Source: Spirochaetia bacterium | Lineage (GTDB): Bacteria; Spirochaetota; Spirochaetia; CAKZLE01 | Length of the DNA: 64,000 nt | NCBI GenBank assembly: GCA_963677595.1 | Contig: OY782041.1 | Location: forward strand, 2,112,001-2,176,000 | Direction: 5' to 3' | The notes under the pieces: generated by a model | Database searches by the model: none | What the model was told of the DNA's origin: nothing | Seen by the model: the letters and a program-made list of their open reading frames with translations, nothing else | Position numbers and translations under genes: made by a program | Shown here: positions 40,390 through 63,084 of the stretch, one piece after another | Position numbering within the stretch: position 1 is the first letter of the stretch | Layout: every line of letters starts with the position of its first letter

Positions 40390-40406
40390 ATTGTAATGAT
40401 TACAAT
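40390..40406. promoter_or_regulatory. PerR/Fur-family-like operator overlapping the dfx -10 element and start site
   Basis: Palindrome ATTGTAAT-G-ATTACAAT; minus-strand promoter TGGATT-17-TATATT overlaps it. The PerR box is TTATAATnATTATAA. Confidence 0.75.
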
Positions 40407-60325: not shown

Positions 60326-61922
60326 GTTCGATGCTTGCCTTGATGAAGCTTGCGAACAACGGGTGCGGTTCGATCGGGGTCGACTTGAATTCCGGGTGGA
60401 ACTGCACGCCTACACCCCAGGGGTGGTCAGGCCATTCCACAGATTCGACGAGTTCCCCTTCAGGGGTGTACCCGCTGATGACCATACCCCCATCACTGAA
60501 GGCATCCCGGTAATGGTTGTTGAACTCATACCGGTGCCGGTGACGTTCGAAGACGATCTCATTGTTGTAGCTGGCAAGGATCTTCGTGCCCGACTGCAGG
60601 TGTGACTCACTCTTCCCGAGCCTCATGGTCCCGCCCATCTCGGTGATGTCGAGCTGCTCTTCGAGCAGGCTGATCACGGGGTGGGGTGTCTCAGGCTTGA
60701 ACTCGGTACTGTCCGCATCGGCGAAGCCGAGGACATCCCTTGCGTACTCGATGACGAAGATCTGCATGCCGAGGCAGATGCCGAAACAGGGCAGTTTCGT
60801 GGTCCTGCAGAACTCTACCGCCTTGATCATACCCAAAACGCCGCGGGAGCCGAAGCCGCCGGGGATGAGGATGCCGTCCACACCGCCCAAGGCTGCAGCG
60901 AGTTCCTCTGATGAGATGTTCTCAAGATCCTCAGAATCGATCTTCACCAGCTCTACCTTGGCCTCGTTGGCGATACCGCCGTGCTTCAGGGCTTCGTAGA
61001 TCGATTTATAGGAATCCGGCAGGTGGATATACTTGCCGACGACGCCGATCTTCACGACATCGACCGCATTCTTGCAGATCTCCACCATGCGTGTCCATTT
61101 GGTCAGGTCCGGCTCATCGGCATTGAGCTTGAGCTTCTCTATGACGATGTCATCGACCTTCTGCTCGCGGTAGACCAGCGGGAGCTCGTGGATCTCCTTC
61201 AGGTCGTAGCCGACGATGACCGCCTCTTTCTTCACGTTGGTGAAGGAGGAGATCTTGTGTATCATGTCATTCTCGAGCATCACCGGTGCACGGCAGATCA
61301 GGATATCGGGCTGGATACCGAGCTCCCTGAGCTCCTTGACCGAGTGCTGTGTCGGTTTCGTCTTCAGTTCACCGCCGCCTACTTCAGGCACCAGGGTCAG
61401 GTGGACGAAGAGGACGTTCTCGGAGCCGAGGTCGCTTCCCATCTGACGTGCAGCCTCGAGGTAGGGGATCGACTCGTAGTCACCTACGGTACCCCCGATC
61501 TCGATGAGGGTCACATCGACCCCGGGACGCTTCCCGACCACGGAGATCCTGCGCTTGATCTCATCCGTGATGTGGGGAATGATCTGGACGGTCCTTCCCA
61601 GGTACCGGCCCTCACGCTCCTTGCTGATGACCGACTGGTAGATCTGTCCTGTGGTGATCGAATTCTCTTTCCTGATGGAAGCCCGGGTGAATCGTGCGTA
61701 GCTTCCGAGGTCGAGGTCTGTCTCTGCGCCGTCATCGGTGACGTAGACCTCTCCATGCTGATAGGGACTCATCGTTCCTGCATCCACGTTGAGATACGGG
61801 TCGATCTTTATCATCTGAATGTTCAGTCCCCTGCTTTCGAGCAGGTTCGCAAGAGAGGTCGCAGCCAGCCCCTTCCCAAGACTTGAACACACACCGCCGC
61901 TGATAAAAATGTATTTCTTCAT
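60309..61922 (-). CDS. pyrG: CTP synthase
   Basis: [34 protein letters not shown] and QFHPEF motifs. Confidence 0.97.
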
Positions 61923-61994
61923 GTAAGAGAAGTATAGTGATTTTACCCTCGTTGCGCAACGTATCGGGACAGGGTTCTCTGATAAAAAGAGACG

Positions 61995-62198
61995 AGAAAA
62001 GGGATCCGCCAACGGTGGATCCCTTTGAAAGTATAGCTAAACATGAACAAGGAGGTATGGATTACGTATGTACACTTCATGCCAGTCTCATGGTTTCCGG
62101 CAGTCATGTATGGGAGTAAGAGGTGAGGCAGCTTTTACTGCACCGATCTCCGTATGCCTCCTGTCCTGGTATGGCGATCAGTCCTCTTGAATCCCTCT
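61995..62198 (-). ncRNA. Candidate small RNA (~200 nt), no family recognised
   Basis: TTGCCT(62233-62228)-17-TATATT(62210-62205) promoter and strong terminator at 61998-62026; no credible ORF between them. Confidence 0.5.
61998..62026 (-). terminator. Intrinsic terminator upstream of the pyrG promoter
   Basis: AAAGGGATCCACC-GTT-GGCGGATCCCTTT followed by a pyrimidine-rich tract. Confidence 0.8.
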
Positions 62199-62239
62199 AT
62201 ATTCAATATAAATGGTGGGGAGCCCAAAGGCAAGGGTTT

Positions 62240-62254
62240 TTGTAATGATTACAA
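62240..62254. promoter_or_regulatory. Second copy of the PerR/Fur-like palindrome
   Basis: TTGTAATGATTACAA, identical to 40391-40405. Confidence 0.7.
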
Positions 62255-62274
62255 TTTAAAAGATTGGTTTCATC

Positions 62275-63084
62275 CTACAGCAGTGCATCTACCCAGTCAC
62301 GGGGGTGGGCGGTGCGGGGCCGAAAGAACTGTACCGGGATGCGGGGTTCCAGATGCCGGGAGAGGAAGCCCGAGACCAGTGGGGGAAAGCGGTAGGCTAT
62401 CTTCCTGGCATTTGCGGGGCATGAGTCTACGCAGGCATAGCAGCGCAGGCAAGAGCCTTTCGCGATAGCGAAGGTCTTCTTCTCAATGATCCCGATCGGG
62501 CAGGCCCGTACACACCTGCCGCAGCGGGTGCAGGCATCCAAGTCAACCTTCGGTTCCCGTGCGAGGAGCCGGTGGCTGTTCTCGGGCATGACCAGGCTCA
62601 TGAAGTCAGGCTTCGTCGGTGTCCGCAGCTCTTCCGGTTTCCCGTTTCTCAAGATCTCGAAGTCCTCGATGTCAGGTCGGCCGACTCCCAGGGGTACCTG
62701 TTCGATGGCAAAGGAGTGGCGGGCGATCGCGGCGATGCTGCAGAAGGGGGAGAGCCCCATCGAGGCTGCGAGCTGCTCGAACTCCAGGAGCACGGCCCCG
62801 AACTCGACCTGCCCGTAGCTGACGAGGCAGACAGTCGGGACCGAGGTGCCGTGGAACTTCTTCAACCGTTCAACAGCCGGTTTCGGCAGGTGACCGTTAT
62901 AGACCGGGGCTGCCAGGACGATGAGGTCAGCGCTCAGGTCCTCCTCGGCAGGTATCTCCTTCGAGGTTGTGATGTCGATCTCGCGGATCGAGGCTGCGGG
63001 ATACCTGCTGCAGAACCCCCTGACGCAGGAACGTGTCCCTCCCGTGGGGGAGAAGGTGATCGTTATGATGGACTGGACGCTCAT
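62275..63084 (-). CDS. EFR1-type flavodoxin-ferredoxin fusion protein
   Basis: FSPTGGT and APVY flavodoxin motifs plus two CxxCxxCxxxCP. Confidence 0.82.
   Translation of the reverse strand: MSVQSIITITFSPTGGTRSCVRGFCSRYPAASIREIDITTSKEIPAEEDLSADLIVLAAPVYNGHLPKPAVERLKKFHGTSVPTVCLVSYGQVEFGAVLLEFEQLAASMGLSPFCSIAAIARHSFAIEQVPLGVGRPDIEDFEILRNGKPEELRTPTKPDFMSLVMPENSHRLLAREPKVDLDACTRCGRCVRACPIGIIEKKTFAIAKGSCLRCYACVDSCPANARKIAYRFPPLVSGFLSRHLEPRIPVQFFRPRTAHPRDWVDALL

Follow-up and report, generated by a model that had tools for sequence, protein, structure and literature searches.

Sequence comparison supports a discrete, conserved non-coding unit upstream of pyrG in the genome of a Spirochaetia bacterium, and very likely this unit is transcribed as a functional small RNA (sRNA). 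In the model that we favour and consider moderately probable, the sRNA would have been born from a peroxiredoxin gene (prx), would be transcribed under the control of an operator-binding PerR-like protein and induced by peroxide, and would, in trans and independently of Hfq, pair in vivo with the mRNA of an Msp-like outer-membrane protein and repress it. The anatomy of the unit, its conservation, its homology to a prx 3' untranslated region (UTR) and its complementarity to this mRNA in four genomes are read directly from the DNA.

The window, i.e. the whole stretch of 64,000 nucleotides that was analysed, belongs to the source genome G000, which was compared with five further genomes of its family: G001 and G002 from the same genus, and G003, G004 and G005 from two other genera; these six are relatives and not independent samples. 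The G000 gene set of 3676 genes came from a simple model and contains some wrong start codons. As the PyrG tree remained unresolved, an RpoC tree was used in its place, a quick search on one marker without topology test, which gave G004,((G003,G005),(G000,(G001,G002))) with SH-aLRT values of 90-99 (90-93 at the two deciding nodes). Both pyrG and rpoC of G002, which are essential genes, carry one in-frame stop each, most simply read as assembly errors or strain mixing.

Anatomy and conservation of the unit upstream of pyrG

The unit lies on the minus strand, behind a flavodoxin/4Fe-4S (EFR1-like) gene (62275..63084, minus strand) which precedes the operator box described below in five of the six family genomes. 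Its promoter TTGCCT-17-TATATT, proposed in a preliminary description of the locus, proved to be the sole promoter-like site in 61800-62400; it scores 9/12, with 0.7 yielded by shuffles, which is weak evidence taken alone. The -35 element (62228..62233) appears to be inherited from the peroxiredoxin promoter, and the -10 element (62205..62210) is invariant in G000-G002. With the start placed from the -10 element, the predicted RNA spans about 204 nt (61995..62198, minus strand) and 201-205 nt in the three same-genus genomes. From its 5' end it comprises a variable domain (62103..62198) of unconserved sequence, part of which resembles peroxiredoxin codons; a hairpin (62080..62102) whose sequence changed while its structure was kept in the three same-genus copies; a weak stem, whose 5' strand (62071..62078) can fold onto half of the seed and mimics the first bases of the target mRNA; an anti-Shine-Dalgarno (anti-SD) stretch, CCUCCU (62050..62055), present in G000-G003 and predicted as the second pairing site, on the target's ribosome-binding site; a 16-nt seed (62029..62044), invariant in four genomes of two genera and complementary to the 5' end of the Msp-like mRNA; and an intrinsic terminator (61995..62026), all on the minus strand.

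The strong terminator that had been proposed is borne out by a hairpin at 61998-62026 with 13-nt arms, 92% pairing and a U tract, although a strict terminator scan did not list it. Likewise, pyrG has its own promoter, as claimed: TTGCGC-17-TATACT (61931..61959, minus strand), 8 nt above the ATG at 61922, is conserved and lies below the terminator in 6/6 genomes. In all six, pyrG is nearly leaderless, since the -10 element is followed by 8 nt ending in AC and then by the ATG (window 61922-61959); one may speculate that the choice of start site between A-C and ATG could sense CTP.

In G001 and G002, the box, its 6-bp spacer, the -35 and -10 elements, the length, the anti-SD CCUCC, the 16-nt block and the terminator are all kept, and the first ~100 nt of the RNA diverge between the same-genus genomes. 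Between the five genomes compared, pyrG is identical at only 32-53% of its fourfold degenerate codon sites, which is near saturation, and the fixation of box, -10 and seed blocks against this background argues that they are under selection. The three local hairpins of the preliminary description do occur in the minimum free energy fold; in stability, however, the RNA does not exceed its shuffles (z of -1.53 with and 0.03 without the terminator), and alignment folding of the three same-genus copies, only three rows, gave zero covariation support. The claim that the unit lacks a credible open reading frame held, as none is common to all three same-genus copies. That the region codes for a small peptide on either strand is hardly credible: G000 has a frame of 27 aa on the plus strand, matched by one of 20 aa in G001, but it is gone in G002 and has neither a ribosome site nor a plus-strand -35 element. 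As in base-pairing sRNAs, an own promoter and an intrinsic terminator thus accompany a conserved seed and no conserved reading frame.

No known RNA family accounts for the unit. Searched against Rfam as the preliminary description suggested, the window contains zero families at gathering score, housekeeping RNAs included; among those not reached at the gathering threshold are OxyS, RyhB, FsrA, MicF, CsrB and the PyrG leader. The region itself has two sub-threshold matches, the best of which is local and terminator-driven (21.9 bits against a cut-off of 80). 6S RNA is characterised by a match to RF00013, a long rod with a central bubble and a single copy per genome; it was ruled out, since the canonical copy of G000 lies at G000:C1:4066955-4067133 (60.8 bits) and the sRNA folds as several hairpins. 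A pyrG attenuator based on reiterative transcription, where, as in Bacillus, a leader starting with GGGC reads into pyrG from a single promoter, was rejected as well, given that the pyrG promoter lies below the terminator in 6/6 genomes and that the 5' ends differ between genomes.

The preliminary description had also pointed to five GGA motifs in the first 55 nt and to titration of CsrA. The motifs are present, but at chance level (shuffle mean 3.5, P 0.17) and with only 2 per relative; CsrA was found in 0/5 genomes (86-97% complete), in a search whose control gave a signal in 3/14, so that CsrA titration was not upheld. A sponge for another protein would have to rely on the five CAUAC repeats of the G000 RNA (window 62053-62175), a 5-mer count within 175 nt that any 5-mer reaches in shuffles with P 0.0008. 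These repeats have no copy in G001 and G002 and are also complementary to GUAUG start-codon contexts, that of the target included, and we regard a sponge for CsrA or any other protein as very improbable.

A predicted PerR-type operator and a probable peroxiredoxin ancestry

The 15-bp palindrome of 7-1-7 type at 62240..62254, the predicted operator of a PerR-like Fur-family protein, was confirmed to lie 6 bp above the -35 element and to be identical in sequence to a box at 40391..40405, between rubrerythrin and desulfoferrodoxin (dfx). The latter abuts the dfx ribosome site and ends 14 nt ahead of the dfx ATG, within a rubrerythrin-dfx-ferritin-rubredoxin cluster. In the window, these two are the only matches at <=2 mismatches (chance expectation 0.01). 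The genome-wide scan that had been suggested gave 10 sites in G000 at <=1 mismatch, 9 of them intergenic, against 0-3 for 24 permuted palindromes; the conservation check that had been asked for located the box at the same position in six family genomes, in three of them before the sRNA and in the other three before a peroxiredoxin gene. Furthermore, it precedes rubrerythrin-perR-like operons in G000 (with two mismatches), G001 and G005, and the perR-like gene alone in G003. By sequence, then, a PerR-type box appears common to the sRNA, dfx and the rubrerythrin-perR-like operon. It differs at two positions from the B. subtilis PerR consensus (PMC545781). The Fur-family protein encoded behind rubrerythrin finds its best model in PerR, with 112 bits against a cut-off of 180, and stays below every curated cut-off, hence "PerR-like"; a second Fur-family paralogue in the genome is Fur-like.

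The box occurs in two classes of sites, either at or below the start, as in dfx, rubrerythrin-perR and a lipoprotein gene, or 6-7 bp above the -35 element, as in peroxiredoxin, the sRNA and a fimbrial-like operon. According to the preliminary description, the regulator might activate an sRNA that silences stress mRNAs. This is disfavoured, since identical promoter geometry drives peroxiredoxin in the relatives, from which co-regulation of the predicted sRNA with an antioxidant gene would follow. Most likely, albeit at no more than moderate confidence, the sRNA follows peroxiredoxin, with predicted derepression by peroxide. Given the rigid spacing, activation through the box is conceivable as well, BosR being an activator in Borrelia (PMC6476982). 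Conserved boxes were also observed before a fimbrial/chaperone-like operon, a lipoprotein gene and a small helix-turn-helix-like gene (G000:C1:1671249, 1329713 and 1049294), with tandem boxes in G001, by which the predicted regulon would reach the cell surface beyond the sRNA.

At the corresponding locus of G003, G004 and G005, the same box, 6-bp spacer and promoter are followed by a PRK13189 peroxiredoxin gene, then by the seed core and terminator within its 3' UTR, and finally by pyrG. The last 65 nt of the sRNA match the G003 prx 3' UTR at 90%, and its terminator, apparently once that of peroxiredoxin, is homologous to the same UTR with an E value of 5e-18. The seed core was present in 3/3 pyrG-linked prx 3' ends and in 0/27 other prx loci (30 of 70 spirochaete matches examined). 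A peroxiredoxin of the locus type is absent from G001 (97% complete) and G002 (86% complete), and in G000 it lies 1.6 Mb from the locus (G000:C1:567579-568320), with its own box 7 bp above TTGACA and without the conserved block. This relocated copy groups with those of G003 and G005 in a tree. It borders on a low-GC stretch (28-36% GC, 559-563 kb).

Based on the RpoC topology, a single loss of the peroxiredoxin coding sequence at the locus is the simpler reading. The coding sequence would have left, and the PerR-type operator, promoter, 3' UTR and terminator would have stayed behind as an sRNA. Part of the coding sequence might even persist: the stretch of the G000 5' domain that includes the GGA-rich part resembles peroxiredoxin codons to a degree equalled by 6/1200 coding controls, and that of G002 to a degree equalled by 14/1200. 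No significant resemblance was detected in G001, and a peroxiredoxin profile search of the 5' domain was negative; an eroded coding remnant is thus a possible, merely suggestive, reading of this domain.

Searches of larger collections with a degenerate seed pattern returned at least 16 metagenome and at least 8 genome loci. Among the matches listed, five represent the pyrG-upstream locus (G001, G002, G003 and two near-copies of G003), and the remainder, mostly one unrelated coding gene, were discarded. A three-gene cluster with a ~550-aa central gene, widespread in very different taxa, contains chance codon matches to the pattern.

The Msp-like leader as predicted target and a second candidate antisense element

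A family-wide search for the complement of the conserved block revealed one recurring site, present in all six genomes: the first bases after a consensus TTGACA-17-TATAAT promoter, in front of a gene encoding a signal-peptide protein of ~400 aa. In G000, this complement of the seed (G000:C1:846602-846618, outside the window) lies at -67 and corresponds to +1 to +16 of the predicted transcript, with which the seed forms 16 contiguous pairs. CCUCCU in turn pairs with the ribosome-binding site ~40 nt downstream, beyond a conserved leader hairpin. The 13-mer common to both partners occurs exactly twice in G000, within the seed and at the target 5' end. The encoded protein has zero sequence matches in Pfam (MOSP_N and MOSP_C included) or the PDB; its atlas neighbours, based on language-model features, include Msp clusters with MOSP domains at 0.95-0.96, and its structural model is all-beta (pLDDT 73) with porins as best folds at low TM-scores of 0.23-0.39. 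We refer to it as a predicted Msp-like outer-membrane barrel with a presumptive porin function. At G000:C1:846551-846660, its gene has a near-consensus sigma-70 promoter, and many spirochaete families conserve the leader layout of purine tail, hairpin and SD; among the 28 leaders examined, the specific 5' tail occurs in 10, all from families f1 and f20.

When accessibility was included in cofolding, the Msp-like leader ranked 6/3676 in G000, with binding energies of -25.8, -27.3, -26.2 and -27.6 kcal/mol in G000-G003. Outside these genomes, binding drops to -15 kcal/mol in G004, where the block reaches the same leader via a differently built second helix (0/300 shuffles), and to -11 to -12 kcal/mol in G005, which 19/300 shuffles match. 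The pairing is thereby kept in 4/6 genomes and partial in two, with one one-sided change, one uncompensated mismatch (G002) and zero two-sided changes. In the reverse direction, scanning from the leader, the sRNA ranked 2/865 among terminator-proximal segments; in the control, 3/19 leaders found a partner at -25.3 or better. Several measures are less selective. The energy of the pure seed duplex on the target is equalled by the best matches of 5/10 shuffled seeds, the target is 82nd in a ranking of 40-nt duplexes, and P is 0.05 for finding a 13-nt match in some leader, falling to 0.002 solely when the class "first 30 nt after promoter-like site" is singled out post hoc.

These permissive single-genome nulls leave some room for a genuine PerR-regulon sRNA which acts mainly on other mRNAs through its generic anti-SD loop and matches the Msp-like leader secondarily or by coincidence. 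The preliminary description had named osmC and dfx as such targets. Indeed, CAUACCUCCUU and its match in the osmC leader are present in the sequence, and osmC ranks 16/3676 in G000; however, its binding of -23.0 kcal/mol falls to -15.9, -11.1, -9.2 and -1.5 in the relatives, and as the CAUAC half of the match is unconserved, osmC is at best a secondary target in G000 only. The proposed dfx target did not hold either (rank 849/3676), and dfx, rbr, ftn and prx together range from 340 to 2287. The motif AGGAGGTATG lies near the start of 2/3676 called genes, and GGAGGTAT near that of 20. Five G000 leaders outscore the Msp-like one in cofolding, and the three that were checked in relatives all decay. 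In the cross-genome comparison, which covered only four rival leaders (osmC, ddl, an anti-sigma gene and a kinase), binding decayed in each by 7-21 kcal/mol already within the genus. A FAD oxidoreductase, considered as a redox target, was dropped for its rank of 950 with accessibility and for having no close orthologue (41-45% identity). An anti-SD function alone would also leave the invariant 16-mer unexplained. We thus consider other main targets unlikely and the Msp-like leader the likely main target, with the anti-SD stretch of the sRNA probably functional. The preliminary description contained neither this target nor the conserved seed beside the terminator nor the presumed descent from peroxiredoxin.

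The conservation of the target side is no evidence in this respect, since the tail is also kept in family f20 (5/5), where no conserved antisense copy of it was found and where pyrG lacks prx at the two loci displayed; only the RNA side and a second element count. Isolated intergenic complements of the tail do occur in f20, namely two tandem partial copies in G102 (G102:C46:7498). A 15-nt leader complement in the ssb-trxA spacer of G123 (G123:C115:2446) was rejected, not being conserved in six other f20 genomes, one of which lacks the downstream sequence.

The second element lies in the 3' UTR of a gene for a 326-aa porin-like protein, behind response regulator and sensor-like genes (G000:C1:1616450-1616525; G001:C36:66902), and was not found in G002-G005. 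Apart from the hairpin, nearly the whole Msp-like leader is represented in it in antisense, with a terminator behind; it offers 19 Watson-Crick pairs to the leader tail plus a complement of the ribosome site (-41.2 kcal/mol in G000, -37.4 in G001). It came first of the 865 segments in the reverse scan, and 0/60 shuffled leaders had an intergenic helix of >17 Watson-Crick pairs. As it was found after the target had been fixed, it lends independent support to a two-part antisense regulation of this leader, and by its sequence it may be a candidate porin-switch sRNA. The single-sequence model of the porin-like protein itself was uninformative (pLDDT 33).

One could argue that the conserved block acts as DNA, either as an operator or as a -10-like piece of the pyrG promoter common with the start of the Msp-like gene, and that promoter and box are relics giving a transcript without function in trans. 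The core is near-palindromic, only 1-2 bases separate it from -10 regions in pyrG and PFOR promoters of this family, the block at the target sits where a repressor site would, and the folding of the RNA body does not exceed that of shuffles. Nonetheless, neither exact copy has a TTG -35 element at 16-18 bp, the conserved last T of the -10 is lost in G004 and G005, the block keeps a constant distance to the terminator and not to the pyrG promoter, and a promoter and box that were relics would have been erased at saturating divergence. In addition, the second element follows the leader complement and skips the hairpin, a pattern that suits pairing between RNAs but would not be expected for DNA binding. 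A DNA element therefore appears rather improbable to us.

Proposed mechanism and relation to known sRNAs

Following our model, the genes of the peroxide defence and the sRNA would be switched on together. Pairing with the target would be nucleated at two places of the sRNA, its anti-SD stretch and that part of its seed which is exposed in a loop; the seed would form its 16-bp helix with the mRNA (+1 to +16) and CCUCCU would cover the ribosome-binding site, the leader's own hairpin bringing both pairing sites together. This would block translation of the Msp-like mRNA, and RNase III or RNase Y might cleave the duplex. Searches detected RNase Y in 5/5 genomes; Hfq and RNase E/G, like CsrA, were not found in five genomes each, nor was RNase J at the cut-off in five genomes. 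The long helix would suit pairing without a chaperone.

The sign of regulation could be the opposite, with pairing at the extreme 5' end shielding the mRNA from 5'-end-dependent decay and raising protein levels. The main helix does start at ~+1 of the predicted transcript, and there is precedent in RoxS-yflS and FasX-ska, which stabilise their targets, RoxS by blocking RNase J1 (PMC5419742). Yet here, in four genomes, the ribosome-binding site is covered by the second pairing site, the sister element behind the other porin-like gene covers it as well, and RNase J (0/5 genomes at cut-off) and RNase E/G (0/5) are missing. Because of the covered ribosome-binding site and the missing RNase J, repression is likelier, and we consider stabilisation improbable.

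A broader reading, on which we are evenly minded at best, is that in these Hfq-less and CsrA-less spirochaetes the mRNA of the main outer-membrane barrel serves, at its 5' tail, as a hub for antisense pairing. The 3' UTRs of several unrelated mRNAs would each clamp both ends of the leader hairpin through a two-part complement, and one of these modules, a former peroxiredoxin 3' UTR, would have outlived its gene as a free PerR-controlled sRNA. If so, the family would hold three stages, i.e. the seed in an intact mRNA, the gene relocated and the gene lost, and the regulatory function would predate the gene loss.

The sRNA resembles several known systems, combining a MicF-like outcome, a FadZ-like 3'-UTR module and an OxyS-like origin, and is a member of none of these families. 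RyhB and FsrA are Fur-regulated sRNAs that pair over ribosome sites. Fur-family control and predicted pairing over the ribosome site are common to them and our candidate, whereas our box accompanies peroxide genes and the perR-like gene instead of iron uptake, and the predicted target is an envelope protein instead of iron enzymes. MicF is likewise linked to oxidative stress and pairs through a 13-nt seed with an mRNA leader, that of a major outer-membrane pore; unlike our candidate, its seed is at the 5' end, and it is Hfq-dependent and activated by SoxS/MarA/Rob (PMC11676804). Here, the seed abuts the terminator and the pairing is two-part around a leader hairpin of an Msp-like target. The FadZ/ompD hub of Salmonella similarly combines a 3'-UTR-derived sRNA with a porin mRNA targeted by several sRNAs, but FadZ is enteric, Hfq-associated, under CRP and still within its parent mRNA (PMC10703908), whereas here searches did not find RNase E/G, and one genus no longer has the parent coding sequence. 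Among spirochaetes, the PerR-dependent LepncRNA38 of Leptospira is a ncRNA downstream of PerR-repressed ccp and rises with H2O2; the passages describing it give neither target nor mechanism, and the likeness to our candidate is one of description (PMC8638851). In our literature search, mostly of open-access coverage, neither this RNA nor an sRNA directed at a major outer sheath protein came up. If true, the model would provide a defined sRNA-target pair in spirochaetes without detectable Hfq, CsrA, RNase E/G or RNase J, together with another regulator acting on that leader. It would also connect the composition of the outer membrane with the sensing of peroxide, a link that MicF makes in enterics.

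The closest parallel concerns the origin. OxyS is a peroxide-regulon sRNA at a position where relatives have a peroxidase gene, with the regulator site, 3' end and terminator kept, and whether its function arose before or after gene decay was not decidable there (Krieger et al., 10.1101/2021.10.18.464853). The locus studied here has the corresponding features, namely a peroxidase at the same locus in relatives, a homologous regulator site and 3' end, and a loss that is derived. It differs by belonging to another phylum, by its PerR-like Fur-family regulator instead of OxyR, by having neither Hfq nor an Rfam match, and by its presumed descent from a PRK13189 peroxiredoxin instead of the Prx-glutaredoxin hybrid reported for OxyS. 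If true, the OxyS route would have been repeated independently in a distant phylum and under another regulator, the new sRNA inheriting the regulon of the lost peroxidase gene. Finally, as a further difference from OxyS, the predicted seed is already contained in the intact peroxiredoxin mRNAs of the relatives, which bears on the two routes left open in that paper and makes the question of function before or after decay testable.
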